Part shown: positions 30,593 to 47,915 of the stretch, one piece after another
How the letters are laid out: every line of letters begins with the position of its first letter
How positions within the stretch are numbered: the stretch's first letter is position 1
Source of the DNA: a virus
Taxonomy: Duplodnaviria; Heunggongvirae; Uroviricota; Caudoviricetes
Virus record (IMG/VR): IMGVR_UViG_3300009419_001390
DNA: 64,000 nucleotides
Direction: 5' to 3' (one strand)
Program-made: the position numbers and the translations under genes
Notes under the pieces: model-generated
Told to the model about the DNA's origin: nothing
The model's input: the letters and a program-made list of their open reading frames with translations, nothing else
Database searches by the model: none

Positions 30593-30609
30593 GCAGATAG
30601 GACACAGAA

Positions 30610-31533
30610 ATGGCAATAAGTGAAATTAATGTAGGGTCTACACCAAACGACGGAACTGGTGATAGTATCCGTGATGCTTTTTCCAAGGTAAACGACAATT
30701 TTGTTTTCCTTGACGATGCACGACAAAATTTAACCACAGGTAATCTCACTGCCACAGGCAATATTGCTTTAAGAGCCAGCGTTCCAAGTTATTGGACTGG
30801 TACATACTTTCTTAATGGGGTACAAATAGCCACAGTAGGCACATTGTTCTCGGGTGGTACAGTTAGTGATCCAACTCAGTTTCAAGCATCCACACCCAGC
30901 ACCAGTAACACATCAGGTGCAGTGGTAATTTCTGGAGGTTTGGGTGTAGGTGGATCATCGTACCTGAGTTCACTGTTTGCTAGACAAGCCACAATTGAAT
31001 TAAGTTTAAGTGCCGCTACACTAACTGTTCAGGGTGTGACTGACCTAATAGGTTCGGTAAGTACTGGTGCATTAGAAACTGATGGAACCTATGACGTGAC
31101 TGGTAACGTCACAATTGGTAACATTTCTGCACTTGCATCAAACACAAACAAAAGAAGTGTCACAGCATCCTTTGGAACATTTTCTGAAGTAACTGGGACA
31201 TCACAAACTGCCGCACAACCAAATATTACTTCGCTAGGAACTCTCACAAGTCTAGCAGTGACTGGTAATATTTCTGCGGCAAATATAACTTTAACCTGGG
31301 GACAGGTCACAGCTAGACAAGCAGTCATTACCGGCAATGTAAGTGTCGGAGCTAATCTTGTGGTGCAAGGAACTGCATCGCTTGCTGGTAATATCACTGC
31401 TGGTAACATTAGTGCAAATATTGGTAGCTATAGCAGCCTAACAGTAAATACTATCCCAACAGTTAAAAGTGTAACAACAAGAGAATACGTAACAGCTACC
31501 GTGGTGGGCTTCGCCATTGGGCTGGGATCATAA
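30610..31533 (+). CDS. tail-fibre protein (307 aa) with the shared N-terminal anchor motif
   Basis: VGSTPNDGTGDSIRDAFSKVNDNF N-terminus; TAAQPNITS repeat; GAVVISGGLGVGGSSY motif. Confidence 0.6.
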   Translation: MAISEINVGSTPNDGTGDSIRDAFSKVNDNFVFLDDARQNLTTGNLTATGNIALRASVPSYWTGTYFLNGVQIATVGTLFSGGTVSDPTQFQASTPSTSNTSGAVVISGGLGVGGSSYLSSLFARQATIELSLSAATLTVQGVTDLIGSVSTGALETDGTYDVTGNVTIGNISALASNTNKRSVTASFGTFSEVTGTSQTAAQPNITSLGTLTSLAVTGNISAANITLTWGQVTARQAVITGNVSVGANLVVQGTASLAGNITAGNISANIGSYSSLTVNTIPTVKSVTTREYVTATVVGFAIGLGS

Positions 31534-31548
31534 ATTGGAGTAGATTAA

Positions 31549-34500
31549 ATGGCAAAAAAGCAACTTAGGAAGTATAGTTTCACCCCCGGAGCAGCCGGTG
31601 TTGGTTATGTAGTGGTCGAAGGAAAACAAGACCAATACAAGCTACTGCTGATAACCAACGTGACTCGAGGAGTTATTCTTTACAACTTTGCCGACACACA
31701 GAACACAGCGGTTACTGTAACATACAAACCCGGTGGTATTAAAACTACAACGGCAGATTCATCTGTTGTAACCTACGACGATGTTCCAATTGGCAGCGGT
31801 GTAGTAGGCACTGCGGTTATACAAAATACACCAGGCCAAGGTGAAACCACAATTAGATTTGACGGAATAAGCACCACAGGACACAGCGCCAATGATGAAC
31901 TGAGTATCTTCGTTGAAGAAGCATATCAAATGGTTCGTGCATGGAATGACTTTGGCACTGACGCAATTGAACGTCAGCGTGTGGCCAACCCCCAATCACA
32001 GATTGACGCTGACTTTGAATACGGACTACAAGCCACCAAATGGCAAGGCTTTGAGCTTGTTCAGCAGTATCCTAGTGTGTACGAAATTCCTGGTTCAGAA
32101 TTAAACATCAGTGACATCACATCAGACAACGCTATTCCAAGTTTGATCACTGTTACCACCAGCAGCGGTCATGGCATGAACATTAACGATCCAATTACTG
32201 TACAAGGCATTGACGTCAATACTACTGGATTTACTCGAGCACAAGGAACAACTATTCTTGCTAGTAATACTGGTGTTACTTCGTTTACTTACTATGCCAA
32301 AGGACAAGTCACTCCACTGGCAGGCGCAGGAACCAGTATCATAAGTCCTCGTATAATCATAAGAAAAGGTGGTTTTTTCTCTGGTGCCAATCTGTCAGTC
32401 TCTCAGTTTACTAGCAACAACGGAACTCCAAGTTCAGTAACAATTACCTTTGGCTCCTCGCATGGTTTTGTGCCAGGCATGCCATTGCTGATTGGTGGTG
32501 ATCCAGCATTCAACTCAAATCAATTTACAAATTTGATTGGGTCATATTATGCCAACTCAATTCCTACTCCAAGCACTGTGGAATTTACTGCTCGCGGACT
32601 GGTAAACATTCCTAGCACAGTGGCCCCAAACGGCAGCAACTTGTTAACAGTCTACACACGCAACGACGGATTCTTTACACATCGTCCTGGAGATGGTGGT
32701 GTGCTCATGGGCACAGCAAGTGCCATACATGGTGCAAGTACAACTCGTCAAAGCAAAAAATACTTTCGGTATCAGTCTGGTAAGGGCTTGTTGTACACCA
32801 CTGGTGTACTGTTTGCGCCAAACTATGACATTACCAGTATTGTAATTACCAACCCACCTGCACAAGGTGCAGGTTCTGCAATCCTGCGTATCACCACAGC
32901 TATTCCACACGGTTGCCAAATTGGTGCAGTTGTGCGAGTTACTGGTTGCGTGGATTCTGCAACTTCGTCTGGATTTAATGCACAATACACTGTTCTAAGT
33001 GTAGAAAGCGATGTACAACTTAATGTGCTTGCCTCTCAGTTGATCACTGGATCAGCTGCCGATATCGCAGGCGTGCCTAAACTGTATATGTATCAGTGGA
33101 ATGGTGCATGTATTCGTACAGGCCCACATGATGACGCCAATGGTATGTTCTTTGAATATGACGGACAAAACTTCAACGTTGTCAAGCGTACTAGTACGCT
33201 TCAATTGGCAGGTACTGTGACATTTACACCAGATTCAAATGCACTAACTGGTATTGGATCATTGTGGACCAATCAATTGAAAATTGGTGATCGTGTGGTC
33301 ATCAAAGGCATGGTTCACAAGGTAAACTTTATTACTTCTGCAACTAGTATTTCTGTTACTCCAGACTATCGTGGTGCAACAACAACCAGTGGTAACTACA
33401 TGTTCAAAGTGCAAGAAGTACGTGTGAAGCAAGCAGACTTTAACTACGATCCTGCAGACGGCACAGGACCGTCAGGTTATAAGATGGATCCTAACCACAT
33501 GCAGATGATTGGTATTCAGTTTACCTGGTACGGTGCTGGTTTTATGGATTTTATGGTACGTGGCAGCGATGGTAATTTTATTATCCTGCACCGCATGAAA
33601 CAAAACAACGTGAACGTAACTGCTTCTATGCGTTCAGCCAACTTACCAGTTCGCTATGAAGTTAACAATGAAGCATCCAATGGTGTGGTACAGTTGAAAA
33701 CCATTGGTGGACTTGATCCTGCTTCCAGTAGTTGTGCAGTAAGTGATGCTAGTTTCTTGCCAGACACTGGTTTTATCTACATGAACTATGAGTTAATTAG
33801 ATATGCCAGCATCAATCGCAACGATTTACCATTTCCAATTCTCAACAGCTTGACTCGTTGTGCGGCGGCCAACGTGTTTATTGGAGGCTCTTATAGAACC
33901 ATCCACGGTCGACCAGTTCCGCAATCCCATGCTTCAGGATCGGGTATAGAACTAGTAAGTTTAACAGCCAGTCCAAACATGAGTCACTGGGGTAGTTCAT
34001 ATATCATGGACGGCGGTTTTGATCTAGATCGTGGTTATGCGTTCTCGTATACTAGAGCGTCAACACCAATTACTTCTACACAAAGCTCAGCATTTGGTAT
34101 TAGGCTTGCCCCTAGTGCGTCCAACGGATTGGTTGGAGACTTGGGTGTGCGTGAATTGCTTAACCGTGCTCAATTGTTGCTACAAAACATTGACGTCACA
34201 GTGGGCAATGCCTCAGTGACTGATGGTGTGCGTAGTGCAGTTCAAGCTAATTGTGTAATTGAAGCTAACTCTGCTATTCTTGTACAGGGAATTTTGAATC
34301 CCAGCAATTATTCAAACAACGAAACCTGGACTGTGTTAAACAAAACAGCCACTGGTAACCAGCCTAGTTTTACACAAATTGCAGAAGTTCCTAGTTTCAG
34401 TTCTGGCACATCTGCAGCACCGGGCGAAAAAATCTTTGAATTTATTGCAAGTCCAGGACAATTGAATCAATTGGATTTGACAGGAATCAAGGAATTGACG

Positions 34501-34647
34501 CAGAGTGCTGTGGGCGGACGTGGTACGTTTCCAAATGGATCTGACAGCTTGTACATCACTCTAGCACTTTATCCAACTGGTACGCAACCACCTAGAATCA
34601 TGGGAAATGTGAGTTTGACGCTACGATGGAACGAAGCGCAGGCCTAA
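31549..34647 (+). CDS. large structural protein (1032 aa), baseplate or fibre component
   Basis: position in fibre module; upstream ATAAATT + TGGAG. Confidence 0.5.
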   Translation: MAKKQLRKYSFTPGAAGVGYVVVEGKQDQYKLLLITNVTRGVILYNFADTQNTAVTVTYKPGGIKTTTADSSVVTYDDVPIGSGVVGTAVIQNTPGQGETTIRFDGISTTGHSANDELSIFVEEAYQMVRAWNDFGTDAIERQRVANPQSQIDADFEYGLQATKWQGFELVQQYPSVYEIPGSELNISDITSDNAIPSLITVTTSSGHGMNINDPITVQGIDVNTTGFTRAQGTTILASNTGVTSFTYYAKGQVTPLAGAGTSIISPRIIIRKGGFFSGANLSVSQFTSNNGTPSSVTITFGSSHGFVPGMPLLIGGDPAFNSNQFTNLIGSYYANSIPTPSTVEFTARGLVNIPSTVAPNGSNLLTVYTRNDGFFTHRPGDGGVLMGTASAIHGASTTRQSKKYFRYQSGKGLLYTTGVLFAPNYDITSIVITNPPAQGAGSAILRITTAIPHGCQIGAVVRVTGCVDSATSSGFNAQYTVLSVESDVQLNVLASQLITGSAADIAGVPKLYMYQWNGACIRTGPHDDANGMFFEYDGQNFNVVKRTSTLQLAGTVTFTPDSNALTGIGSLWTNQLKIGDRVVIKGMVHKVNFITSATSISVTPDYRGATTTSGNYMFKVQEVRVKQADFNYDPADGTGPSGYKMDPNHMQMIGIQFTWYGAGFMDFMVRGSDGNFIILHRMKQNNVNVTASMRSANLPVRYEVNNEASNGVVQLKTIGGLDPASSSCAVSDASFLPDTGFIYMNYELIRYASINRNDLPFPILNSLTRCAAANVFIGGSYRTIHGRPVPQSHASGSGIELVSLTASPNMSHWGSSYIMDGGFDLDRGYAFSYTRASTPITSTQSSAFGIRLAPSASNGLVGDLGVRELLNRAQLLLQNIDVTVGNASVTDGVRSAVQANCVIEANSAILVQGILNPSNYSNNETWTVLNKTATGNQPSFTQIAEVPSFSSGTSAAPGEKIFEFIASPGQLNQLDLTGIKELTQSAVGGRGTFPNGSDSLYITLALYPTGTQPPRIMGNVSLTLRWNEAQA

Positions 34648-34663
34648 TACGTTTTTCAGTTCC

Positions 34664-34670
34664 ATAAATA
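34664..34670 (+). promoter_or_regulatory. late promoter-like motif ATAAATA
   Basis: 18 nt upstream of ATG 34688. Confidence 0.3.
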
Positions 34671-34687
34671 CATAAAATGGAACACAC

Positions 34688-37600
34688 ATGGCAAAAATAA
34701 CATGGGTCACTCCGCAAGGAGATCTTGGCACATATCCAGAAAATGTAGAATTCAGCTTCCTGTTGGAAGCTGATGATCCACTGGCTCCGGATTCTGATCT
34801 AGGGTTTGATCCTAGAAACAGCCTGACTGGCAACGGTATTCCCAATCAAGTAACTGTTGAAATTGAAACCAACAAAACTCGTTGGCAAGTACAGTCGTTG
34901 AATTTACCAGGTTTTGCCAGTGTCGGAGCATTTCCTAATGATCAAAATCCCAATCGCATCACTGCTCAGCCAATTGATGCACAGTATCCCTATCGCGGTG
35001 GCCGCAACAAAGTAGCAGAAACATTTACTCCATTACCATTGGGTCCAATTGGCATCAGTGCAGTTGGCGTGGTATTATTTGGACCGGCTGCGGATATACG
35101 TGTCCCAGGACTAAACAACACAGTATGGAACGTGAATGCCAATGTTGCAGATATATTTGGTGAAGACCAATTTGGCGGATACCCACAGCCAAACGGTATG
35201 TATCATTATCATGACACAAAATTTATCAACAGCAATGCCTGGGGTAACATAGATCAATGGAAAGACGGATATCGTCATGCCAATGGACACAGCAAGATAA
35301 TAGGCTGGGCCGCTGACGGTTATCCTATATATGGTCCATATGGATATATCAATCCAATGTCTGCAAGTGCTATTGTTAGAATGCAGTCAGGTTATACTGC
35401 TGTGGCCAGTGACAATCGTCCACGACCTGCCGCTGTAAAAATACCCTCAGGACGCTATGAATTTGCAAAAGTTCCTGTGACTGAAACCACAGGACTATTT
35501 CCTGGACAACGCATACGCGGTCCATGGCCTGAAGACAAGATAAGAATTATTGCAGTATACAACAACGAAATATTGCTCAACCAAGTCTTGCCAACAGAAA
35601 TTCGACCAGGAGTTAGATTATCAGCATATTGGCCAATTGGTGTGTTTGTTGAAGACTATCAGTATACCGCTCCGCAAGGAACCAGCTTGGATCCTAGCAA
35701 TGGCAGATATTGTGTGACTCCTGAGTTTCCTGCAGGAACTTACGCATACTTTTCAACAGAAGATGTGAATAGTGAACCAGTGTATCCTTACATGGTAGGC
35801 CCAAATTACTACGGTGACATCACGCCAGATGACATACCTGGTGTGGCAAATATTGAACCAGCTCCGTCAACCTTGACCTATACCATACTCAGCGGTAGTT
35901 TGCCAATTGGCATTCAACTGCGCAGAGATGGACTAATTTATGGTTTCCCCTCAGTCACTACCATAGGCGTTAGTGACGTAAGAGAATATTCTTTTACTGT
36001 TCGTGCAACAAATACCATTGGTCAAATTGCAGATAGAACTTTTGTTATTTCTATCAACAACATTGTTCCTCCACAGATTCTCACAACTGGTATTAGAGGC
36101 GAAGGTGTTGGACAAACAATTGGCAATATTGATCTTGCGTTTACAAACATTGGATTAGGATACTTTTCTACCAATGTGAGTATAGCAATTAGCGATCCAG
36201 ACATCATAGGCGGAGAACCTGCTGTTGCTGGCAAAGTGTATCTTCACGCCAACGGAGCTATTAAAGCTGTTGGTTTGGTAAGTTCCGGCACTGGCTATAC
36301 TTCATTGCCTACCATTGGCATCACTGGCGGTAACACAGTTGCGGCAAGTTGTACAATTACATCACTAACTAAATCAGGTAGAGAAAATCTTGGTTATTAC
36401 TTTGATGGTGATTATGTTGACATAAAAATTAACGCACTTGAAATCAGTCCTACTGGAATACTGCAATGGCAAGTATCGCAAGGTTCGTTGCCGCCAGGAT
36501 TGGTAATTGATCAAACTGGCCGTATTAGTGGATTTGCACAAGCGCCGGCCAGACCTGGCGATGTTGGTACAGCGGCATATGATGTTGGGCGGTATGATCA
36601 ATTTGTTTATGATTTTGAAGGTGCGGCAGACAGTCGTGTGTATCTTTTCAATCTTCGTATTTTTGATGGCATTAACTATGTTGATCAACGATATCGTCTG
36701 GGCATATACGACAAAACTTATTTCCTTGTTGACAATGAATTAATTACCGCTGACTCTACTCGTTACACTGCGGACCGAGACGGCTACCAATATCCAAGCA
36801 TTGTTACTGCCAGTACCACGTTGCCACCAGTGCGACAAGGACAACAATATGCATATCAATTTCAGTCGTATATTTCTAATCCCAACTTAGAAGTCAAATG
36901 GAGTGTAAATGCAGGAGGCCCTGCAAGGTTTGATCAAGGAGCCAGTCCCAATCCCGACGATAATAATCGATTCTTTACCGTGGTGCCATACGACGATCGT
37001 AGCTTTGACCAAACTGATTTAAGTTTACCAGGAGGAATTTTCCTAGATGGCGACACCGGTTGGCTACTTGGAAGAATTGGCACAGTAACACAAGCAGAAA
37101 GCACTTACGAATTTACTGTAACGGCCTATGTTGAAGTTCCAATTTCTCAATCAACAACCAGTATTCGTCGCAGTCAACCAGTTAAATTCAGCATTACTGT
37201 ACTGAGTGACATTAAAGAAACTGTTACTTGGCTATCACCCAGTGATCTTGGCACCATTGACAATGGTCAGATCAGCAGTGTTGCTATCGAAGCATCAACC
37301 AATAAAAATAGTACACTGACCTACAAAGTAAAAAGTGGACAGTATCTGCGTGTTCCGCAAGGGCTTAATTTACAGAGCAACGGATTACTCAGTGGACGAA
37401 CTACCTTTGACTACTTTAGCATGGATCGTAGAAACAGCGAAATTACTTTTGATAGTGAAAGTAATACCTATGACAGCAAATATGTGTTTACTGTGATAGC
37501 TCAGGACGCCACTGGGTCAGTCTACGACGAAAAAGAATTTACTCTTACAGTTACAAATGTAAACAAGAAGCCCTACGAAAATCTTTATCTAAAGGCTCTG

Positions 37601-40414
37601 TTGCCGGCAGCACTGCGCCAAGTATTTCGTTCAATCGTAACTGACGAAAGACTCAGCAGTGAGGATATTATCTATAGGCTTGGAGATCCGTATTATGGAA
37701 TACATCTAGACTTGACCATGCTGGTCCAAGCAGGTATTCGTGCAGAAACTGCATCAGCATTTGTAGATGCAATGTCCAATTATCACTACGATAAAAAGAT
37801 TAATTTTGGCACAATTAAAAAAGCAGTGGCCAGATACACCAATGGTGATGTCAAGTATGAAGTTTTATACGTTGAAGTGTTTGACTACAACAACAAAAAT
37901 CTTCCAGGAACCACAGTTGCATTACCTAGTGGGCAACCAAGAGTGCTTGGATCTGTAGATGATCCAGTTTTGACGTCAGATGATTTTCAGTACGTGGCAG
38001 ACAGCGTGACACGAAACGAAGACTTTGGATTGGTGACTGATCCACAAATCATTGGAGACACACAGGTTTATTCTAACTCATTTGCAAATATGCAAAATGA
38101 AATTGAACAAGGCATTGGCTACGAGTTTCAAGGTGCTTTGCCCGAATGGATGCAGAGTATTCAACCCAGTACCGGAGTTCCGCTGGGATTTGTTCGTGGA
38201 CTAGTACTAGCATATGCCAAACCCGGACAAGGTGATAAATTACTCTATCGTTACACAGCCGCACTAACACAAAGCGGATATGGTGTGGTAGACATTATGA
38301 ACACCTTTAAGTTTGTTGCAGATAGATATCAGTGGGATAGAACTCTCAGCGTCAACTACGATCCCGAAAGTGGAAGTTTTGTTCCAAGTCAAACAACAAC
38401 ATTTGACAGGATCCCTAGTGCAGGTATTGTCGAAAAAGGCGCATGGATCAACCGCGATAGTGGTATTAGTACAGACCTGCTGAGTATTGTTTATGGATCC
38501 GGATCTTATGTTGCTGTGGGTCGAGACAGCAGAGTGCTAGTTAGTACCAGCGGTACAAACTGGAATATTGAATCACAAAGGATTAGTTTAAGTTACGCAT
38601 CAGCATTGATATCAAATCTTGCAATTGGTGGCACAACAATAGTATTGCCATACACATCAAAGATCAGTATTGATGACGAAGTATTACAATCATCAGTATT
38701 TGAAACAGATACTCGTTGTTATATAAATTCAGTTGACAATGCTGTGAGATTAAGTGCTAATCTTGCAAATGCTTTGCCCAGTGGCACAGGGCTAGAATTC
38801 ATTGACTACAGAGGTGGCGGAAGATATTATGCTACCACAAGCAACATAACATCAGCTGGTACCAGTGTTTTATTTGTTGACAATGTTACTAATCTAAGTG
38901 CCGGCTACGGAGTTATTGTTAGAGGCATTGATATTGCAAATGCCGCTGTGGTTACTGCTAATATTGGATTGACAGTGACACTCAGCAATGTCACAACCTA
39001 TCAAATTCCAAGTGGAACAAAAGTAACTTTTGACAACTTGCAAGGTCAAATTGAAATACTAACCACCACTGGAACAACCCCAGCTGGTAATTCTCAAATT
39101 ACATTCACCAGCCTGGGCAATGTCACAACAGGATTTTATCCAAGGCTCACCGCAATTCCCACAGCAACAACCACGCAGTCGTTGTTTACCTATGCAGAAC
39201 TAAGTGAAGCATCAAACAGTTTGGTGTTGCGTAATACCGAGATTGAATTCACGCACAGACTCACTGCGCCTGCAACTGTTGGGGCAACCACACTGTATTT
39301 TAGTAACACTGACCAACTGTCGTTGGGAACTGAAATTTTTGCTGTGAGCACAGAAAGCAACACCACAAACAACGCACATTGGGCCGCTTTGAATCCAGCC
39401 GGAAACACCTTGTATATCACTGTTCCCTACAGTGCAATCAATGGTGATATATTTCGAGGCATGCGTGTGGTAGGACCAGGGCTACCAGCAAGTGCTATAC
39501 TATCAGAGATTGCCGGAAATGCCACAGTGGCCAATTTAACGTTGAATTTTACAAGTTCTACTGTGGCAGCACAGGCCAATGTTGCAATTTCATTCTTGAC
39601 ACCAACTGTTGTGTCGGCCGGAACAACTATAATTGGAAAAAATTCAACCAGTATTTCTTTAAGCAGTCCAATTACTGCTAACATAGGACTTGGTGCAGAT
39701 TCAACAATTGAATTTGGTCTCACTGGAGTCGCACTTACCAATGTTATATTTGATGGTCAACGATTTGTTGCAGTAGGAGACCGAGGATTGATCATTGACA
39801 GAGAAATTGGATCAAGAACCTGGAATCAGCGACTTGGATTAGTGTACGGGGATCTCAAAGCCATTGGTCATAGAAGCTACTATTCTGGAAACAATCTACA
39901 ATACACATATGTGGCTGTTGGCAACGAAGGTGCTGTGATTCGTAGCACCGATCTCAACACATGGAGTTTGCCTATTGCTACCCTAGCAAACCGTACTTTG
40001 AACTCTGTTGCCCACAATTATGGGCAATGGGTTGCTGTTGGCGAAGGTGGACAAATTATTACCAGTACTGACGATGGACTATCGTGGACCTTGGACAATA
40101 CCACAACAGAACTTAATCTGTACGATGTTGCATACTTTGGACAATGGATTGCGGTTGGAGACAAAGGATATGTTTATCTGCGTAGTCAAAACAGCAATAC
40201 CTGGACCAGATACAACGTTGGTGCCAGCGATAGCCTACGCAGTATTGCATTTATCAATAATGTAATTTACCTGGTTGGCGCTAGAGGAACCATTGTGTCT
40301 AGCCTGGAAGGAACAAGTGGACCGTGGCAGATAGATTCACAAACAACAGACTCAATGGCATCAGCCGTGGAGCAAGTACACCAGTTGCAATTGGTGCATC
40401 GGGTGTTATTTTAA
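34688..40414 (+). CDS. very large fibre/structural protein (1908 aa) with YHYH domain and C-terminal BNR/Asp-box beta-propeller; reading frame probably continues into 40324..41019 after a -1 shift
   Basis: MYHYHD...GHSKIIGWAADGYPIYGPYGY (YHYH-domain signature); ITSTDDGLSWT Asp-box at 40064..40087. Confidence 0.55.
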   Translation: MAKITWVTPQGDLGTYPENVEFSFLLEADDPLAPDSDLGFDPRNSLTGNGIPNQVTVEIETNKTRWQVQSLNLPGFASVGAFPNDQNPNRITAQPIDAQYPYRGGRNKVAETFTPLPLGPIGISAVGVVLFGPAADIRVPGLNNTVWNVNANVADIFGEDQFGGYPQPNGMYHYHDTKFINSNAWGNIDQWKDGYRHANGHSKIIGWAADGYPIYGPYGYINPMSASAIVRMQSGYTAVASDNRPRPAAVKIPSGRYEFAKVPVTETTGLFPGQRIRGPWPEDKIRIIAVYNNEILLNQVLPTEIRPGVRLSAYWPIGVFVEDYQYTAPQGTSLDPSNGRYCVTPEFPAGTYAYFSTEDVNSEPVYPYMVGPNYYGDITPDDIPGVANIEPAPSTLTYTILSGSLPIGIQLRRDGLIYGFPSVTTIGVSDVREYSFTVRATNTIGQIADRTFVISINNIVPPQILTTGIRGEGVGQTIGNIDLAFTNIGLGYFSTNVSIAISDPDIIGGEPAVAGKVYLHANGAIKAVGLVSSGTGYTSLPTIGITGGNTVAASCTITSLTKSGRENLGYYFDGDYVDIKINALEISPTGILQWQVSQGSLPPGLVIDQTGRISGFAQAPARPGDVGTAAYDVGRYDQFVYDFEGAADSRVYLFNLRIFDGINYVDQRYRLGIYDKTYFLVDNELITADSTRYTADRDGYQYPSIVTASTTLPPVRQGQQYAYQFQSYISNPNLEVKWSVNAGGPARFDQGASPNPDDNNRFFTVVPYDDRSFDQTDLSLPGGIFLDGDTGWLLGRIGTVTQAESTYEFTVTAYVEVPISQSTTSIRRSQPVKFSITVLSDIKETVTWLSPSDLGTIDNGQISSVAIEASTNKNSTLTYKVKSGQYLRVPQGLNLQSNGLLSGRTTFDYFSMDRRNSEITFDSESNTYDSKYVFTVIAQDATGSVYDEKEFTLTVTNVNKKPYENLYLKALLPAALRQVFRSIVTDERLSSEDIIYRLGDPYYGIHLDLTMLVQAGIRAETASAFVDAMSNYHYDKKINFGTIKKAVARYTNGDVKYEVLYVEVFDYNNKNLPGTTVALPSGQPRVLGSVDDPVLTSDDFQYVADSVTRNEDFGLVTDPQIIGDTQVYSNSFANMQNEIEQGIGYEFQGALPEWMQSIQPSTGVPLGFVRGLVLAYAKPGQGDKLLYRYTAALTQSGYGVVDIMNTFKFVADRYQWDRTLSVNYDPESGSFVPSQTTTFDRIPSAGIVEKGAWINRDSGISTDLLSIVYGSGSYVAVGRDSRVLVSTSGTNWNIESQRISLSYASALISNLAIGGTTIVLPYTSKISIDDEVLQSSVFETDTRCYINSVDNAVRLSANLANALPSGTGLEFIDYRGGGRYYATTSNITSAGTSVLFVDNVTNLSAGYGVIVRGIDIANAAVVTANIGLTVTLSNVTTYQIPSGTKVTFDNLQGQIEILTTTGTTPAGNSQITFTSLGNVTTGFYPRLTAIPTATTTQSLFTYAELSEASNSLVLRNTEIEFTHRLTAPATVGATTLYFSNTDQLSLGTEIFAVSTESNTTNNAHWAALNPAGNTLYITVPYSAINGDIFRGMRVVGPGLPASAILSEIAGNATVANLTLNFTSSTVAAQANVAISFLTPTVVSAGTTIIGKNSTSISLSSPITANIGLGADSTIEFGLTGVALTNVIFDGQRFVAVGDRGLIIDREIGSRTWNQRLGLVYGDLKAIGHRSYYSGNNLQYTYVAVGNEGAVIRSTDLNTWSLPIATLANRTLNSVAHNYGQWVAVGEGGQIITSTDDGLSWTLDNTTTELNLYDVAYFGQWIAVGDKGYVYLRSQNSNTWTRYNVGASDSLRSIAFINNVIYLVGARGTIVSSLEGTSGPWQIDSQTTDSMASAVEQVHQLQLVHRVLF

Positions 40415-41019
40415 GTGAAAGTCCTAGCTTTACTGTCAACTGGGCAGTGCGTAACATTGCATTTGACAAGTTTAATTTTGTTGCTGTGGGTAATCTTGAA
40501 GAACAGGGTTATAGAGTACAGGATGGAGATACATTGATATTTGTACAACAAGAAGGATTTGGTGGCTTGAATGATGGGTGGAATCTGTACAGTGAAACAT
40601 TTGGTGATGAACCAGGTTCCGCGCTTGGATTTGATACCAGCACCTTTGATCAGTACACTGTGATTCCAGGCTATACTGAAAGCACAAGCGATAGCAGTCT
40701 AAGCAATCAACGTGCTGGAATTTGGAAAGTGATAATCAATGCAAATAATATTGTAACTTTACAATTCCAACGACAAGTCCTGCCTGGGCAAGTAGTTAAT
40801 GTAACTAGCGAAACTAGCAAACTGTTCTATGACCCGCAAATCAAGGCAGGAAAAACTGTACCAGAATACAGTTTGATCAGCACTTTGTTGCCCGACAGCA
40901 CACAAAACACTAGTTTTGACACTGAAGGAACTCGCTTTAGCAGTAACAGAGACAACTTTACCGAACCCGGAACTCTGGATAAATACCTTAAGTTCCCCAA
41001 AACCGGAGTATTTAGATAA
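40324..41019 (+). CDS. C-terminal continuation of the 34688 gene in the -1 frame (or separate 231-aa propeller-like protein)
   Basis: sequence continues the blade pattern (NGISRGASTPVAIGASGVILSE vs preceding SLRSIAFINNVIYLVGARGTIVSS); overlaps upstream ORF by 91 nt. Confidence 0.4.
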   Translation: MADRFTNNRLNGISRGASTPVAIGASGVILSESPSFTVNWAVRNIAFDKFNFVAVGNLEEQGYRVQDGDTLIFVQQEGFGGLNDGWNLYSETFGDEPGSALGFDTSTFDQYTVIPGYTESTSDSSLSNQRAGIWKVIINANNIVTLQFQRQVLPGQVVNVTSETSKLFYDPQIKAGKTVPEYSLISTLLPDSTQNTSFDTEGTRFSSNRDNFTEPGTLDKYLKFPKTGVFR

Positions 41020-44000
41020 TGGCCAGCTTAGTAAACCCGTTTAATATTAATGGTAATTACCCTATCGCAGGGCAAGACAATGACAGTCAAGGCTTTCGCG
41101 ATAACTTTACCAACATCAAAAACAACTTCATCTTCATTAAACAAGAAGTTGAAGACATGCAATCCAAAGTAATTTTGAAGAGTGCGCTGTCAGGCAGTTC
41201 GCTAGACAACAACTTTTTGGGTTCGCAGGTAAAAAACATTCAAACTAAAAACCAGAGTGAAACTGTGTATGACTGGGGCGAAGTTGGCGGTGCCACTGCA
41301 ACAGAAATCCAGCTTGATCTTGCCCTAGGTAACATTCATAAAATCAATGCTACAGGTGCTATCAAGATCAACTCAGTTATTAAAAACTTTCCAGCAGCAT
41401 TGCAGTATGCAAGAATTTTATTATACATCAACATTTCCAGTGTTACCAATACCCTGGAATTGCCAAGTACACTGACTACCGACACTGCCAGTTTGCCTGG
41501 CTTGCGTGTTATTGCCAGTAGCAAACTGGTTACATTTACAGATCCAGGAGACTATATTTTTGAATTTAGTTCTGTTGACTCTGGGACTACTGTGTTTGTT
41601 CGTGAACTAACAAAAGGTAATCCAGTATTCCGTGATCCTAATTTTTACATGGCGGGCATTGGAGAATATGCCACACCAACACTGAGACTCGGCTGGGGCA
41701 ACCTATTCCCAATTAGTGCTAGAATTGACACAGTAACCAAGAGCGGTACAGACACATTCAGTGTGCGTGGCGGTATAACGTCATTTATGAACTTTGCTGA
41801 TAGTGGTAACAGTCCACTAGATATGAAAACAGCTGGTTTCTCAGTTGCAAAGAGTCGTACCACTGATACAGGTGCTGGCTGGGATGGCAGTAACGAAACT
41901 GTTATTAACAGTGGAGATTACATTGGCTATTTTAATTCTCTAGCTTACACAAACAGAACTGACGGCTCAGGCAACAAGAATTACCAACAAATGGCCTTGA
42001 TTGGTATGTATGCGTCAGGGTCGAACACCAGTTATGGCCTTGGCGGTAATATTGTTATATCTACCAAACGTGATGGCGGAAACATTGCACCTGCAATGAC
42101 CATTGACCAAAATCAAAACGTTGTGTTCCTTGGCAACGTTCAGGTTGACGGTGTACAAACAATTATCAATTCAACAATACTTTCTGTTGACGACAAAAAT
42201 ATTGTAGTAGCACAAGGCGCAGATCCGTCGGCTCCAAGTCAAAGCAATTCAGCTGGTATTATTGTAGATGGTGTATTTGCAAATATTCTTTATTTTGCAG
42301 ATGATGCTACACTATCTGCAAACATTCGCGATCGTTGGCACACCAACAAAGCATTTAGCATTGATGCAACTACCACATCTACATCAAGTGAAACCGGAGC
42401 ATTGGTTGTTGCTGGTGGTGTTGGTATTGCAGAAAATCTATCTGTGGGTGGATCATTTGCGTTAACATCAGCAACTGAAGCAACTAATACGACTACTGCG
42501 GCGTTTGCATTGTCAGGCGGTTTGGCCACAGCTAAAAATATTATTGCTGGTGGAAACTTGCTTGCTAATGCCACAACTGTTGCCAGCAACTTAGTATCAG
42601 GTACATTCCAAGTCAGTGGTGGAGCTGCCATCCGTGGTAACTTGTACATTGGTGGGCAACAAGCACCAGGCACCGGTGGTGTTACACAAACTGGATTATA
42701 TGTTCTATCATCATCATTGAGTGGCAATACCGCAAGCGGAGCATTGGTAGTTAAAGGCGGTGCTGGTATTGCTGGTAACGTGTATCTAGCTGATGCAAGT
42801 TCTGCCAATGGTGTTGTGGTTTCTAGTACACTAAATGTACCTGGAACAATGATGTACTATAGCTCATCAGCTTCAGACGGTAATGTACTGGCCCGCACAA
42901 ACACTGCGGCTTTTAGAGTAGCAGGTGGATCAATTCTTGAAGGCAACGTGATCATTGGTGCTGGTAGTACCATAGGTTCACGTGGTCGGTTGTTTATTGA
43001 CAATGCACAAAACGTTGATGTAGGTGATATTAGAACCGGCGGCGTGGTACTGGGCAATACGGCAGCTATTGTGGGCATGAGTGTAAGTGGTGATATGAAC
43101 GTTGGTACTGATAACTCAGGAACCATTTATATTATCAACAAAGAAGCTGCACTTGGTACTCCAACAACTGGTATTTTAACTCCATATGTACCAACCAAGA
43201 TATCCAGTGATCCAGTGTATGGATCACTTACATCTAGAGGTGGCATAAACATATTTGGCGATACTTTCATTGGTCAACCACACGGCGAGACCGATATCAA
43301 TATATCCGGTACCTGGAGTGGAGCACCAAACGGTGATACCAAAGGTCAAGTTGGTACTCCTGCTATTTTGGCTGCTAACCCATATTATGGTACACCGTTT
43401 GGTGCAGCCAGTGGTAACTTGGTTATCCAAAGTGGTACAAGATCATTTAACTTTACTAGCGGTGCATTGCAGATCAAACAGGTTACCTGGGCAGATGGTA
43501 GTACTAGCGATGGCGGTGCTGGTATTGCTGGTAATTTATATGTTAACTCGGCAGCATTCTTGGGCGGGTTTGGCGTAAGCAGTAACTTTGCAAACCTTGT
43601 TGCCGCAAGTTCTACAGAATCCACAGATGCATTCACAAATCCAAACGGATCATTTGTTGCACTGGGTGGTGCTGGTATCAAACGACGTCTAAACGTAGGT
43701 GGTAACGTTGTTATTCAAAGCGGATCGTTAGCAACATTTGCCACTGGTGCTCCGTCTACCGGTGCATTGATATTGACTGGTACAGGTGGTATTGCCGCAG
43801 GTGGTACTATCATTGCTGGTTCTGGTATGAGCACTGGTAACTTGTTGATTGCCGCAGGCGGTACATCCACAACACCGTTGCAATTGACCACTGGTACACT
43901 AAACACTTCAGCAGTGGCAGGAGCTCTCGAATTCCAAAGCGGTATCTGGTACGCTACTCCTTCTGCAAGCAGTCGCGGTATCCTAAATACTTCTCACTTG

Positions 44001-44579
44001 TTTATATTGAGTGCCAACTCAAGTTTGAACTCTGGATCAACTATCAGTGCTACCAATACTGGTTATGGTATTTTTGGTGGATCGACTGGTACCGGCACAG
44101 CAGGACAGTTCAATGCTGTGGCAGGAACCACGTACCAATTTGAACTCAAAGTTCTACTTGGCACCAGTGGCACACCTGCATCATCAACCATGCAGTTTTC
44201 GTTTGGTGGAACAGGCACTGCGGCCACCTACAACTGGTTCCAGTATCAAACAACCTGTGCCAACCTTAACTATGTGTCTGGCTCTGGCACTGTGCAGTTC
44301 AGCGGATTGGCCAGCAACATTGCTATACAAACCTTTGCAGGTACCACAACAGTGCCTACTGCTACCAGTGGCGTGGTTATATCAGCACAGCAAACAGCAA
44401 ACAAGGTGCTAGAAGTAAATGGTATCATTAGCGTGAACACAGCTGGTACCATTTTACCACAAGTGTCTTTTGGCAGTGCGCTTGGTGTTATTGTACAAGC
44501 ATTGCCAGGCAGTTATTGGAAACTTACTCCAATTGGCGGCTCAAGTACATTTGGTGTTGGTAACTTTGTAACATCATAA
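41019..44579 (+). CDS. tail-fibre protein (1186 aa) with the shared N-terminal motif and GALVVAGGVGIAENL repeats
   Basis: GQDNDSQGFRDNFTNIKNNF N-terminus; multiple GAL-x-V-x-GG-x-GI-x-GN motifs; TAATG coupling. Confidence 0.6.
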   Translation: MASLVNPFNINGNYPIAGQDNDSQGFRDNFTNIKNNFIFIKQEVEDMQSKVILKSALSGSSLDNNFLGSQVKNIQTKNQSETVYDWGEVGGATATEIQLDLALGNIHKINATGAIKINSVIKNFPAALQYARILLYINISSVTNTLELPSTLTTDTASLPGLRVIASSKLVTFTDPGDYIFEFSSVDSGTTVFVRELTKGNPVFRDPNFYMAGIGEYATPTLRLGWGNLFPISARIDTVTKSGTDTFSVRGGITSFMNFADSGNSPLDMKTAGFSVAKSRTTDTGAGWDGSNETVINSGDYIGYFNSLAYTNRTDGSGNKNYQQMALIGMYASGSNTSYGLGGNIVISTKRDGGNIAPAMTIDQNQNVVFLGNVQVDGVQTIINSTILSVDDKNIVVAQGADPSAPSQSNSAGIIVDGVFANILYFADDATLSANIRDRWHTNKAFSIDATTTSTSSETGALVVAGGVGIAENLSVGGSFALTSATEATNTTTAAFALSGGLATAKNIIAGGNLLANATTVASNLVSGTFQVSGGAAIRGNLYIGGQQAPGTGGVTQTGLYVLSSSLSGNTASGALVVKGGAGIAGNVYLADASSANGVVVSSTLNVPGTMMYYSSSASDGNVLARTNTAAFRVAGGSILEGNVIIGAGSTIGSRGRLFIDNAQNVDVGDIRTGGVVLGNTAAIVGMSVSGDMNVGTDNSGTIYIINKEAALGTPTTGILTPYVPTKISSDPVYGSLTSRGGINIFGDTFIGQPHGETDINISGTWSGAPNGDTKGQVGTPAILAANPYYGTPFGAASGNLVIQSGTRSFNFTSGALQIKQVTWADGSTSDGGAGIAGNLYVNSAAFLGGFGVSSNFANLVAASSTESTDAFTNPNGSFVALGGAGIKRRLNVGGNVVIQSGSLATFATGAPSTGALILTGTGGIAAGGTIIAGSGMSTGNLLIAAGGTSTTPLQLTTGTLNTSAVAGALEFQSGIWYATPSASSRGILNTSHLFILSANSSLNSGSTISATNTGYGIFGGSTGTGTAGQFNAVAGTTYQFELKVLLGTSGTPASSTMQFSFGGTGTAATYNWFQYQTTCANLNYVSGSGTVQFSGLASNIAIQTFAGTTTVPTATSGVVISAQQTANKVLEVNGIISVNTAGTILPQVSFGSALGVIVQALPGSYWKLTPIGGSSTFGVGNFVTS

Positions 44580-44582
44580 TCA

Positions 44583-44612
44583 TTGACTTCTAGGTTGGGT
44601 TAGTGTTATACT
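44583..44612 (+). promoter_or_regulatory. sigma70-like promoter TTGACT-18-TATACT
   Basis: upstream of mazG paralog 2, AGGAG SD follows. Confidence 0.55.
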
Positions 44613-44631
44613 AGCCCAACTAGGAGTTAAA

Positions 44632-45078
44632 ATGACAATCGACTTAAACAAATATTCTGAGTTCGTTGGTGCTGTGACCAGCGAACCTTCTCGTGATCTA
44701 ACCACATTCATAGATCGGCTAGATCAGCTGGACGGTAACTATGAACTGTTTGAAGGCGAGACTGAATTGCGACATGGTCCAGATATCAATGTACCACTGT
44801 TGCTCACAGCATGTTTAGGACTTGCCGCAGAATCGGGTGAGTTCATTGAAATTCCAAAGAAAGTGTTCTTCCAAGGCAAACCGCTAACAGAAGAAAATGT
44901 ATTCCATATGAAACGAGAACTGGGTGATGTCATGTGGTACTGGGTCAATGCTTGTAGAGCTTTGAACCTAGATCCAAACGAGGTCATTGCAGAGAACGTA
45001 AATAAACTGAAGGCTCGTTACCCAGGTGGTGAGTTTGACGTAAACCATAGCGAAAATCGACAACAAGGAGATATCTAA
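44632..45078 (+). CDS. mazG: MazG-like nucleoside triphosphate pyrophosphohydrolase (paralog 2)
   Basis: LGLAAESGEFIE and KRELGDVMWYWVNACRAL motifs. Confidence 0.6.
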   Translation: MTIDLNKYSEFVGAVTSEPSRDLTTFIDRLDQLDGNYELFEGETELRHGPDINVPLLLTACLGLAAESGEFIEIPKKVFFQGKPLTEENVFHMKRELGDVMWYWVNACRALNLDPNEVIAENVNKLKARYPGGEFDVNHSENRQQGDI

Positions 45079-45266
45079 TGTCAAGTGTACAAGTAATCAA
45101 AGATGCCGTGGATGCATGGATCAAAGAAGATGATAAATTTACCGCAGGCAACAATGCCGCAGGTACTCGTGCTCGCAAAGCACTAGGTGAATTGGGCAAA
45201 GCAGTCAAAGCACGCCGCAATGAAATCACTGCTGAGAAAAACGCACGTAAAGAAGCCAAGGCCTAA
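45078..45266 (+). CDS. Lys/Ala-rich histone H1-like DNA-binding protein
   Basis: AGTRARKALGELGKAVKARRNEITAEKNARKEAKA low-complexity basic tail. Confidence 0.4.
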   Translation: MSSVQVIKDAVDAWIKEDDKFTAGNNAAGTRARKALGELGKAVKARRNEITAEKNARKEAKA

Positions 45267-45268
45267 TT

Positions 45269-45508
45269 GTGTTTCACCCCCTGGCACCTAATATTTCTGA
45301 ACTCAAAGATGATGAGCTTTATGCTAAAATCACTGAGCTTGGAAACAAAATGAACTCTGCATATCGATCAGGGTCAGGGGATGTGCTACGACAAATGCAG
45401 ATGTTGTTGTCACACTACCAAGAAGAACTGGCTGTGCGCAATCGCAAAAAGCTAGAAGAACTTGAAAAAAATAACAACAACTTCAAAAATATTATCAACA
45501 TAAAATGA
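45269..45508 (+). CDS. hypothetical coiled-coil protein
   Basis: ORF track. Confidence 0.4.
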   Translation: MFHPLAPNISELKDDELYAKITELGNKMNSAYRSGSGDVLRQMQMLLSHYQEELAVRNRKKLEELEKNNNNFKNIINIK

Positions 45509-46017
45509 AACGTGATCAATTTGGATTGAGCCATGCAAGCGAAAGCGAGCTTTGCGAGCTATTGTATGCTCAGCCCAGTCTAGACCTTACACAATTTTTG
45601 GTTGATGATCCCACTGTGTTTAACCATGCAGTCCGGTCATTGTTCGTTGACATCCCAGCTCTAAAAACCTACAAGCCCTACGATGTAACAGTTGAAGAGT
45701 TTGATCAATATCAGCAAGCACAATGGCACATGCCCGAGCAATATGTGAATTTTGATATTGCTCAATGGACACTGGATCAATGCACCACAGATGAAGAACT
45801 GCAACGTGTGGGACAAGAATTGCTCATGTACCAAGAGCGTGACGCTTTCATGCTCTTGCGCTACATGAAGTATCTGGTAGATGTCATGCGAGAAAATGGT
45901 ATTGTTTGGGGAGTAGGGCGTGGATCTAGTGTGAGCAGTTTTGTACTGTACAAGTTGGGCGTTCATCGTATCAACAGCTTGTACTATGATTTAGACCCCG
46001 CCGAGTTCCTCAAATAA
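45505..46017 (+). CDS. orphan fragment homologous to the DNA polymerase III alpha (DnaE) GPGRGS region
   Basis: FMLLRYMKYLVDVMRENGIVWGVGRGSSVSSFVLYKLGV...DLDPAEF aligns with DnaE [45 protein letters not shown]; ORF ends right after. Confidence 0.4.
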   Translation: MKRDQFGLSHASESELCELLYAQPSLDLTQFLVDDPTVFNHAVRSLFVDIPALKTYKPYDVTVEEFDQYQQAQWHMPEQYVNFDIAQWTLDQCTTDEELQRVGQELLMYQERDAFMLLRYMKYLVDVMRENGIVWGVGRGSSVSSFVLYKLGVHRINSLYYDLDPAEFLK

Positions 46018-46021
46018 ATAG
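46015..46021 (+). promoter_or_regulatory. late promoter-like motif ATAAATA
   Basis: 21 nt upstream of ATG 46042, CAGGAGAG SD. Confidence 0.3.
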
Positions 46022-46041
46022 CATACACAGGAGAGTTAATT

Positions 46042-46467
46042 ATGTCAAAAGTATATAGAACAGCACAGGGCAAAGCCATCAATATGGATGCATTGCGTGT
46101 GCAAAACGAAAAAGTAATTGCTGTAGGCAACATGAAAATCAATGCCGCTGGCGATGAGCTTGGCCCAGGTGGCGTAGTTACACGTACTCGAGACCAAGTC
46201 ATGAAAGAGTACTACGACAGCAATGCTGTGTATACCAAAGAAAAAGTTGATGAGCGTCGCGATGAGCCACAACAACCACGCAGTCAAAAAGCTGAAGCAG
46301 AGCACGTGGACTTCCCAGCAGACATCATGGAACAAGATGCGGCCATGGATGAAGTTGATGTTCCAAAACTACGCGGTAATCTTGCAGATGCTGTGGCCAA
46401 AACTGCCAAGGTTGAGCAAAAACTTCTTACACCAAAAAAACCAAGTTCAGGACCAACGAGGATCTAA
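46042..46467 (+). CDS. hypothetical late protein
   Basis: ORF track; late motif + SD. Confidence 0.45.
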   Translation: MSKVYRTAQGKAINMDALRVQNEKVIAVGNMKINAAGDELGPGGVVTRTRDQVMKEYYDSNAVYTKEKVDERRDEPQQPRSQKAEAEHVDFPADIMEQDAAMDEVDVPKLRGNLADAVAKTAKVEQKLLTPKKPSSGPTRI

Positions 46468-46890
46468 ATGAGTGAAATGCTACCACTAGGCGAAGGATTG
46501 TTTCCAGCAATGGGATCAATGCGAATAAGGCACAAAATCAGTAAGCTGGCTCCGTTAAAGGACAAAGTACTTGTTCGCGACATGAACTTCAGCGGACGCA
46601 AATTATCAAGTGGTATTGTGTTACTTGGCGATGATAAAACAACAGCTGGTATTCGTCCTCGTTGGGCGCAGGTATATGCTGTGGGACCAGAGCAAACAGA
46701 AGTCACATCTGGACAATGGATCATGGTTGAACATGGTCGTTGGAGCCGCGGTATTGACATTGAAATCAACGATGAACAATTCACTCTACGTCTTGTTGAT
46801 CCCAAAGCTATCATGTTTGTTAGTGACAACGAGCCCGACATTGATGATACTCTGAGCAGTGCTGTTCAGGCAGAAAGCAAGACTAGATAA
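46468..46890 (+). CDS. groES: co-chaperonin GroES-like (Cpn10); start may be an internal ATG (46510/46519)
   Basis: KLAPLKDKVLVR...SGIVLLGD...AQVYAVGP co-linear with GroES IRPLHDRVIVK...GGIVLTGS...GEVLAVGN. Confidence 0.55.
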   Translation: MSEMLPLGEGLFPAMGSMRIRHKISKLAPLKDKVLVRDMNFSGRKLSSGIVLLGDDKTTAGIRPRWAQVYAVGPEQTEVTSGQWIMVEHGRWSRGIDIEINDEQFTLRLVDPKAIMFVSDNEPDIDDTLSSAVQAESKTR

Positions 46891-47036
46891 TGCCAATGTA
46901 CGAAGCTGTGGTGCGTACACCCGAAGGCGAAAAGAAGCAACGGGTGTGGGCACCGGATATGAAAACTGCTCGTCACCTGTTGGAACAAGAGTACGGCATT
47001 AAAAATGTTCCATATCAACCAAAAATAGTTCCTAAC
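46890..47036 (+). CDS. hypothetical 48-aa protein
   Basis: TAATG coupling; not in ORF track. Confidence 0.3.
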
Positions 47037-47047
47037 TAATAATTCCT

Positions 47048-47290
47048 ATGGGATTCCGCAAACCTAACTTAGAAGATGCTTACTCGGTGATACGTAATTC
47101 ATTGGTTGAAATAAATTCGCCATATAATGACGGTTTCACCGGATTCGCTTGCAAACAAGAACTATATCAGTTAAAATGTTGGTTAGAGGATGCTTACGAC
47201 AACTTACCAAATTTTGATGGAGAAGACGCATGGGAACAGGAACGGATAGTACAGATATTAAAGAGGAAGCCAAAAAACGTTCACACGTGA
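47048..47290 (+). CDS. hypothetical protein
   Basis: ORF track. Confidence 0.4.
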   Translation: MGFRKPNLEDAYSVIRNSLVEINSPYNDGFTGFACKQELYQLKCWLEDAYDNLPNFDGEDAWEQERIVQILKRKPKNVHT

Positions 47291-47697: not shown

Positions 47698-47915
47698 GAT
47701 TCAAACTAGACATTCCTGCTAACCCTGTTCAAGGGGATACCACAGCATGGAAACCAGTATTCTTACTGTTCCCAAAACAAATTGAAAATCAAATTGTTTG
47801 GCTTGAGACCGTGAAGTATCGTAAAATATACATGATCAAACAACGTCCTACCAAAGCCGGCCCTGTGCTTGGCGGTGCGTGGGAACATGAATGGAAGTTA
47901 CCGGAGAACGTATGA
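47694..47915 (+). CDS. hypothetical protein
   Basis: ATGA coupling both ends. Confidence 0.4.
   Translation: MRFKLDIPANPVQGDTTAWKPVFLLFPKQIENQIVWLETVKYRKIYMIKQRPTKAGPVLGGAWEHEWKLPENV

Follow-up and report, generated by a model that had tools for sequence, protein, structure and literature searches.

Programmed frameshifts are known in phage tail and baseplate genes (lambda G/GT type), and the locus described here shares with the lambda G/GT tail assembly chaperone and with dnaX the -1 relation of two overlapping ORFs, here in a phage tail/baseplate cluster. It also resembles the single-base-indel ORF breaks of metagenome assemblies, in which adjacent same-strand ORFs overlap in different frames, both ORFs match one continuous protein and the one-nucleotide lesion is private to one assembly. 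In its domains, the encoded protein recalls the YHYH proteins of T4-like cyanomyoviruses (annotated as gp7 'baseplate wedge initiator' or 'baseplate wedge subunit') through its N-terminal YHYH domain, its PHROG matches, its very large size and its place among giant structural genes. It recalls Ycf48/PSII_BNR (PF14870; 2xbg, 5ojr) through its blade consensus, a Pfam score close to the cut-off and the top fold matches of the AF2 model of an 88%-identical relative.

The window, a stretch of 64,000 nucleotides from a Caudoviricetes virus, carries ORFs 34688..40414 (+ strand, 1908 aa) and 40324..41019 (+ strand, 231 aa), and their coordinates confirm that the second is shifted to frame -1 with respect to the first, as the sequence-only reading of this DNA had stated. 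Our analysis indicated that the two ORFs are parts of one 2110-codon virion/baseplate structural gene, broken in this contig by the absence of a single C.

Position of the frame break

The earlier proposal that the two ORFs belong to one gene agrees with the protein comparisons. The -1-frame product is clearly homologous to the C-terminal end of the single long proteins of relatives (tblastn E = 1e-33 to 1e-14), with 88% identity to the relative P0001, a similarity much too strong to be accidental. The propeller-blade pattern is indeed carried on in the -1 frame. However, the proposed position of the switch, 40343..40354, has to be revised, because alignment with the protein and DNA of relatives places the true break about 30-40 nt further upstream. 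In the DNA alignment, a single C is absent beside C40314, so that the window reads GGA-ACA-AGT where every relative reads GGA-ACC-AAG; the one-base deletion site is thus 40313..40315 (+ strand; ACA-AG in the window against ACC-AAG in all relatives). At the protein level, relatives read ...SLEGT-KWTVADRFTNNRLNG..., whereas the window has LEGT in frame 0, with ACA at 40313-40315, and needs the -1 frame for KWTVADRFTNNRLNG, with AAG at 40315-40317.

Because the switch lies upstream, at 40313-40317, the frame-0 residues SGPWQIDSQTTD, which had been taken as the end of a blade, are already out of frame, and their W resembles the blade tryptophan by chance. The junction had been placed some 30-40 nt too far downstream because this wrong-frame tryptophan made the tail look like a blade end, a caution for any reading from sequence alone, since a chance tryptophan in the wrong frame can shift the inferred junction. 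A TAG in the -1 frame at 40300..40302 (+ strand) sets the upstream limit for any frame switch, and the permissible zone is therefore 40303..40414. Nothing in the relatives corresponds to the out-of-frame tail of the 1908-aa ORF (40316..40414, + strand), which consists of 32 codons (SGPWQIDSQTTDSMASAVEQVHQLQLVHRVLF) and a stop. The GTG at 40324..40326 (+ strand), assigned mechanically as the start of the 231-aa ORF, is an internal Val codon in relatives, and it would be relevant only if the deletion were real and translation restarted there.

When one C is added, ORF 34688..40414 and the -1-frame ORF ending at 41019 fuse into an uninterrupted gene of 2110 aa. Its 5' part (34688..40315, + strand, frame 0) comprises codons 1-1876, from Met1 to Thr1876 (ACA 40313-40315), and matches the near-identical contig L011 except at position 40019. 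Its 3' part (40315..41019, + strand, -1 frame) runs from Lys1877 (AAG 40315-40317) to Arg2110, with the stop at 41017-41019. It supplies the propeller with the last strand of one blade and with its final blade, and it also encodes a conserved C-terminal domain, about 200 aa long (NDGWN ... KYLKFPKTGVFR). The downstream gene of 1186 aa (41019..44579, + strand) has an ATG that shares one base with the TAA of the repaired gene (TAATG), and the same arrangement and an identical protein are found in L010 and L011.

The gene in near-identical assemblies and in relatives

Two contigs nearly identical to the window span the site. L010, the Logan assembly of SRR5818248, corresponds to window positions 38049..45262 at 99.97% identity; it has the extra C and a continuous ORF, and the deletion is the sole indel in the 7215 nt compared. 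L011, a 256-kb contig (ENA ERZ27245771), corresponds to 34633..55078 at 99.956% identity with 8 substitutions; it likewise has the extra C, the gene is called as 2110 aa, and the deletion is again the sole indel, in 20,447 nt. The exact 2110-aa protein of L011 is also recorded on a JGI/ENA contig of 371,055 nt, while the 1908-aa product occurs on one contig only in the protein collection and the exact 231-aa product is absent from it. Over the roughly 31 kb compared with the near-identical contigs L011 and L015, no further indel was found. The window also carries private substitutions. At 40019 (+ strand), 294 nt upstream of the deletion, it has T where L010 and L011 have G, so that Asp1778, which occupies the D/N-G position of a propeller blade, becomes Tyr; a further private SNP is 45843C. 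The exact junction pattern with one or two bases at the site gave no match in viral_contigs or metagenome_contigs, and no paper was found in the literature on SRR5818248.

The same continuity was observed at greater distances. The sequence-only reading had suggested a comparison with orthologous genes, and this comparison found one continuous gene in the orthologues and no case of two genes with the same overlap. Of 16 members seen in the 90%-identity cluster, 13 have the full length (12 of 2110 aa and one of 2109 aa), and LEGT(K/N)W is read continuously in 14 members, namely these 13 and one that is N-terminally shorter. P0001-P0007 (42-88% identity) are continuous over the break site, and L001-L006 and L017 (30-65%) each have a single unbroken long ORF, of which the homologous segment forms the C-terminal end. 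In the comparison with L007 (86% nucleotide identity), the deletion is the only unpaired indel. Two apparent exceptions were discarded: the frame jumps of L008, which might have been a second independent frameshift, fall at runs of N in the scaffold, and the gene of P0138 (1519 aa), a candidate natural truncation, stops 10 nt from its contig end. No true internal truncation was found in the other members of the cluster. Megablast searches of 39400-41400 and 44000-64000 against deposited phages gave no match, and tblastn against the same phages found only distant propeller or YHYH proteins of cyanophages, Limnohabitans phages and Actinomycetia phages. The deletion is private to the window contig, and the gene is unbroken in all of the relatives that span the site.

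Domain organization and the predicted effect of the break

In the 2110-aa protein, a YHYH domain in the N-terminal region is followed by Ig-like repeats, and a Ycf48-like beta-propeller in the C-terminal region is followed by a conserved terminal domain. The YHYH domain (PF14240) covers aa 110-245 with E = 1.9e-31 and 110 bits against a cut-off of 25. The 5' part also holds a He_PIG Ig-like domain and, from about aa 1685, Ycf48-like propeller blades with the consensus x-VAVG-xxG-x-I-xxS-xDG-xx-W; a blade-like unit may also be present some 400 aa upstream of these. Against the gathering cut-off of 27 bits, PSII_BNR (PF14870) scored 21.5 for the whole ORF, 26.7 for the repaired C-terminal segment and 29.7 for the truncated segment alone. 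No Pfam or PHROG family was found for the middle and the C-terminal domain. The label 'fibre' given to the protein earlier does not fit these results, as its matches are to YHYH-domain virion structural and baseplate-wedge-subunit families. The matches to gp7-like and wedge proteins are partial: aa 40-378 show 30-40% identity to proteins annotated as gp7-like (by name only) in S-ShM2, S-SSM4, S-CAM9 and others, and PHROG 708/2885 baseplate-wedge-subunit matches extend over about 70 residues.

The fold was assessed on an AF2 model of P0001, a relative 88% identical to the window protein. In this model, residues 13-248 have a pLDDT above 88 and are predicted to form a beta-propeller of four-stranded blades, and the top PDB matches are the Ycf48 structures 2xbg and 5ojr (E ~4e-8). 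The C-terminal domain of about 200 aa has a pLDDT below 50. The break corresponds to residues 211/212 of the model, within the confident propeller (pLDDT >88 to about residue 248), so that it severs the propeller before its last blade and drops the most conserved C-terminal domain. Most columns that are invariant in the family alignment fall within the lost region, which is also the best conserved segment among distant relatives. Because the break falls inside the confidently modelled propeller and the best conserved segment is lost, the truncated product should be defective, as judged from the model of P0001.

Recoding and separate genes

If programmed -1 ribosomal frameshifting or transcriptional slippage occurred at or near 40313-40354, the full-length protein would be produced, with the 1908-aa form as a second product. 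The geometry, a -1 overlap of 112 nt in a phage tail/baseplate module, is the one observation in favour of such a scenario, and the sequence around the break speaks against it. The heptamer X_XXY_YYZ is absent in any frame from 40295..40414, the switch point being GGA-ACA-AGU, and 40303..40414 contains no homopolymer of at least 4 nt except TTTT at 40409, far from the break. Read from the sequence, a tRNA moving from ACA to AAC, or from GGA to AGG, would re-pair poorly. The downstream RNA (40318..40420, folded without pseudoknots) is no more stable than its shuffled versions, with an MFE of -23.8 kcal/mol where shuffles average -23.0 (z = -0.24). In addition, the two-frame layout is absent from the contigs of 99.96-99.97% identity and from all of the orthologues spanning the site, and the frame-0 tail is unconserved junk. 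Because the C is missing only in this contig, an assembly error or a private mutation is indicated rather than ribosomal frameshifting. Programmed frameshifting is effectively refuted by the comparison with relatives, and we consider it very improbable. At the peptide level, ...SSLEGTKWTVADR... would mark a frameshift product and ...SSLEGTSGPWQIDSQ... the truncated form.

Another reading is that the locus holds two overlapping genes that are truly distinct, one for a long structural protein and one for a small protein downstream, and the mechanical ORF with its GTG start at 40324 counts in its favour. However, in every relative checked (about 30) the homologous segment is an in-frame part of the upstream protein, and similarity crosses the break; the exact 231-aa product has no copy in the protein collection, and no orthologue with a conserved stop and restart was found. 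This scenario has almost no probability in our view.

Origin of the deletion

The three explanations proposed from the sequence alone, namely an error, an unconventional recoding site and a recently split gene, have not fared equally: recoding is not supported, for want of the layout in relatives, of a slippery site and of a stimulatory structure, while an error and a recent split are both still in contention. We favour, by a modest degree of confidence, a sequencing or assembly indel over a true allele. Under this explanation, one C would have been lost (ACC-AAG to ACA-AG at 40313-40317) during sequencing or assembly of the metagenomic contig, and the phage itself would therefore make the full-length 2110-aa protein. 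The lesion is found in one assembly, while other assemblies made independently from what is essentially the same genome do not have it, the pattern expected of an artefact. Misassembly through DNA repeats between blades was rejected, as 39300-40800 contains no direct repeats of at least 14 nt.

Some observations count against an artefact. Apart from the deletion, the contig is very clean; the C was lost from a CC dinucleotide, which, unlike a long homopolymer, is not a classic error hotspot; the blades share no DNA repeats through which misassembly might have arisen; the private SNPs point to a slightly different haplotype; and the non-conservative D1778Y change is only 294 nt away.

The deletion could instead be real and private to the strain, a recent null or split allele, for example in a defective or host-range variant, and we regard this as a substantial possibility that falls somewhat short of an even chance. 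The phage would then make a truncated protein of 1908 aa, with 1876 native and 32 junk residues, that lacks the last blade and the C-terminal domain. A restart at GTG 40324, which is preceded at a distance of 10 nt by the SD-like AAGGAA (40308-40313), might give a separate fragment of 231 aa as well. That near-identical contigs, compared over about 31 kb, revealed no other indel is in line with a real deletion. So are the private SNPs 40019T and 45843C, which mark the window as a slightly different haplotype that could hold a real mutation, with D1778Y being a second private and radical change in the same propeller. De Bruijn assemblers require several supporting reads for a k-mer path, which also counts for a real allele. 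On the other hand, such an allele is known from one contig only, the rest of the cluster is without true internal truncation, and strong counter-selection would be expected, because the lost region has most of the invariant columns and the closed propeller would be opened.

If the deletion is real, the strain might even be viable, with the propeller protein made in two pieces that reassemble, a body of 1908 aa and a product of 231 aa translated from a restart at GTG 40324, or with a phage that tolerates the loss of the last blade and terminal domain; this is improbable, although it would provide a natural split or truncation variant of a baseplate or receptor-side protein, linked to D1778Y and possibly a host-range variant. 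A real deletion would be of minor interest, as one instance of a phage baseplate protein with a private null or split allele. The main consequence is for annotation: the ORFs of 1908 and 231 aa should be entered as one structural gene of 2110 aa, or as a frameshifted pseudogene if the deletion is true, and not as a case of recoding.

Comparison with known systems

Unlike lambda G/GT and dnaX, the locus has no slippery site and no stimulatory structure, and its layout is not shared even by a contig with 99.97% nucleotide identity. The short product has an unconserved junk tail, and the gene does not encode a chaperone. It differs from the usual single-base-indel breaks of metagenome assemblies in having its lesion at a CC dinucleotide, not in a long homopolymer, and on a contig that shows no further indels. 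Sequence identity to Ycf48 is about 16%, and here the propeller is a domain in a 2110-aa virion protein rather than a photosystem assembly factor. Finally, only the N-terminal 380 aa or so and the propeller blades match the cyanomyovirus YHYH proteins, and the gene is carried on contigs of jumbo-phage size (256-371 kb), to which no deposited phage is a close match in DNA.

The reading frame break and its position

The 1908-aa ORF (34688..40414, + strand) and the 231-aa ORF (40324..41019, + strand, GTG start) overlap, and the latter lies one base back in frame relative to the former. Pfam searches revealed in the 1908-aa ORF a YHYH domain (PF14240; aa 110-245, E = 1.9e-31), a He_PIG Ig-like domain and, near the C-terminus, repeats of the form x-VAVG-xxG-x-I-xxS-xDG-xx-W with a weak PSII_BNR/Ycf48 score. 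As a sequence-only reading had proposed, propeller-blade units go on past this ORF in the translation of the -1 frame, which is that of the 231-aa ORF.

When a conceptual fusion of both ORFs was compared with a large protein collection, seven specific relatives were retrieved (P0001-P0007, 42-88% identity); each aligns continuously over the junction, where they read ...GARGTIV(T/S)SLEGT-KWTVADRFTNNRLNGISRG.... In the window, frame 0, that of the 1908-aa ORF, gives ...SSLEGT, with Thr encoded by ACA at 40313-40315, and the -1 frame, which is closed upstream by TAG at 40300-40302 and open only after it, gives KWTVADRFTNNRLNG, with Lys encoded by AAG at 40315-40317. Because the homology of the relatives passes to the -1 frame after LEGT, the frame-0 residues SGPWQIDSQTTD, previously read as the end of a blade, are already out of frame, and the switch, formerly placed at 40343..40354, lies ~30-40 nt further upstream. 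L007, the 1410-nt contig that encodes P0001, shows 86% identity to the window over 1391 nt, and the sole unpaired gap is at GGAA-CAAGTGG in the window, against GGAACCAAGTGG in L007. Insertion of one C at the break results in a product of exactly 2110 aa. Since the relatives are continuous and one added C restores this length, the proposal that both ORFs form one gene with a -1 relation is upheld.

Continuity in relatives and tests for recoding

The suggested comparison with orthologous genes revealed one continuous gene in P0001-P0007, L001-L006, L010, L011 and L017, and that the two ORFs are truly separate genes is barely credible. In the six viral contigs L001-L006 (32-38% identity), the homologous segment forms the C-terminus of a single uninterrupted ORF (981-1399 aa); in L017, a metagenome contig (65% aa identity), a single tblastn segment covers the site inside one long ORF. 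The 90%-identity cluster of the 1908-aa product has 28 members; among the 16 listed in two listings, 12 have a length of 2110 aa and one of 2109 aa, and LEGT(K/N)W... is uninterrupted in all 13 of these full-length members and in an N-terminally shorter one (1992 aa).

Assembly artefacts in L008, L016 and L012 imitate split or truncated forms of the gene or its neighbours. The frame jumps of L008 (1..4974) are not a second frameshift, as scaffold N-runs shift the frame, and the 1519-aa cluster member on L016 (8560..8570) is not a natural truncation: the gene, whose tail diverges, stops 10 nt before the contig end. Between L012 and the window, the only differences are at the divergent end of the L012 contig (1..90) and at 45843.

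An unconventional recoding site had also been considered. First, no X_XXY_YYZ heptamer was found in any frame of the permissible zone (40303..40414), confirming the earlier remark that a classic slippery heptamer is lacking, and the only run of at least 4 identical bases there is TTTT at 40409, distant from the break defined by homology. Second, as read from the sequence itself, GGA-ACA-AGU at the break gives tRNAs no plausible way to re-pair in the -1 frame. Third, RNA folding downstream of the break gave no stimulatory structure better than shuffled sequence (z = -0.24). In addition, a recoding signal missing from 99.97%-identical genomes would not amount to a conserved mechanism. On these grounds, programmed frameshifting at the break is very improbable. 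We conclude that a single-base deletion private to one contig interrupts what is a single gene, and that "recoding event" is excluded as a label.

Near-identical genomes and the origin of the deletion

The Logan contig L010 (SRR5818248) carries the 1186-aa protein of the downstream gene unchanged and was located through it. Over window 38049..45262 it is 99.97% identical and differs twice, by G for T at 40019 and by an additional C at the junction. The upstream ORF of L010 is unbroken as far as the contig end. L011, from a 256,244-nt ENA contig (ERZ27245771), has a gene call of 2110 aa; it is 99.956% identical to window 34633..55078, from which it differs by eight substitutions and, as the sole indel, the one at the junction. 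The exact L011 protein is also recorded on a 371,055-nt JGI/ENA contig, and the same length is recorded for the longest contig with copies identical to the window's proteins of 2277, 1032 and 1186 aa. The only record of the window's 1908-aa product is a JGI/IMG contig of 136,870 nt.

The private G-to-T change at 40019, where L010 and L011 both have G, replaces Asp1778 by Tyr; this residue occupies the D/N-G position of a propeller blade. It and the deletion are two private, damaging changes close together in the same domain. Four of the eight substitutions relative to L011 lie within 126 nt (54007..54132) of the DnaK-like gene, two of them altering the protein (Thr/Ala, Gly/Asp); recombination over a short stretch, or a variable loop, may account for this cluster.

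As a biological feature, the deletion is most probably not real. We give an artefact of sequencing or assembly slightly better than an even chance, because the allele is unique to one contig and should carry a high fitness cost; metagenome assemblies normally contain an occasional single-base indel. That the deletion is instead real, a private null or split allele, is a serious possibility, its chance falling somewhat short of even. In favour of a real allele, the contig is clean apart from the junction, the comparison with L015 (11.1 kb, ENA ERZ27245867; window 21439..32576) being free of indels, and no further indel occurs over the ~31 kb compared. Also in its favour, the site is only a CC dinucleotide, with no repeats that might mislead an assembler; the window represents a slightly distinct haplotype (private SNPs at 40019 and 45843); and one of these SNPs, 294 nt before the deletion, makes the radical Asp-to-Tyr change at a conserved position of a blade. 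If the allele is real, translation might conceivably restart at GTG 40324, downstream of AAGGAA (40308-40313).

Effect of the break on the protein

In the AlphaFold2 model of P0001, residues 13-248 are confident (pLDDT above 88) and form a beta-propeller, with the Ycf48 structures 2xbg and 5ojr as best PDB matches. The junction corresponds to residues 211/212 of this relative, within the propeller and before the last blade. One isolated unit resembling a blade, SIVYGSGSYVAVGRDSRVLVSTSGTNWNIES (window about 38480..38580, aa about 1266-1298), precedes by ~400 aa the six contiguous blades, which begin at aa about 1685; it may belong with them as the seventh blade of a Ycf48-like propeller, set apart by a large insertion.

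The propeller is followed by a domain of about 200 aa, which holds most invariant columns of the family alignment and is the sole part common to the gene and its most distant relatives. This C-terminal end of the repaired protein (window 40700..41016) is the most conserved part of the family, with the motifs NDGWN, PGY, NQRAG-W, TRF and KYLKFPKTGVFR. No Pfam or PHROG family matched it, and its model, built on a shallow alignment, had low confidence (pLDDT below 50); the domain is a candidate for attachment. The truncated product would comprise 1876 native residues and 32 junk residues and is expected to be defective, because the closed propeller and the conserved end would be lost.

Identity of the gene and its genome

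The 1186-aa gene that follows starts within the stop codon of the repaired gene (TAATG, 41017..41021). L007, L010 and L011 show the same overlap, which suggests translational coupling within a structural operon. The window is part of a jumbo-phage-sized genome, with near-identical contigs of 256,244 nt (ENA) and 371,055 nt (JGI/ENA), and the relative L017 (65% aa identity) lies on a contig of 373,949 nt. Megablast of window 39400-41400 and 44000-64000 against 50,697 deposited phage records gave no match.

The auxiliary genes, labelled from precomputed Pfam tables of near-identical loci, are unusual. Those in 22136..23251 encode an eIF-1a-like protein (22136..22357), Fe superoxide dismutase (22317..22925) and an Fe-S biosynthesis protein (22922..23251); those in 44632..46890 encode MazG (44632..45078), an Hc1 histone-like protein (45078..45266), a DNA_pol3_alpha fragment (45505..46017) and a protein with a faint Cpn10/GroES match (46468..46890). 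An AAA/RuvB_N clamp-loader-like protein (47912..48829) and a weak radical SAM match (48829..49938) occupy 47912..49938, and a full HSP70/DnaK homologue of 644 aa lies at 53030..54964.

The gene had been called a fibre gene, a label that its N-terminal matches do not bear out, as they point to baseplate wedge or virion structural proteins. Its N-terminal roughly 380 aa show 36-40% identity to T4-like cyanophage proteins annotated as gp7-like "baseplate wedge initiator/subunit" and also have hits to PHROGs of virion structural and baseplate wedge proteins; no family was matched by the protein's middle part. The neighbouring genes encode further giant structural proteins (2277, 1032 and 1186 aa), and the likeness of the window's structural proteins to those of T4-like cyanomyoviruses is only distant.
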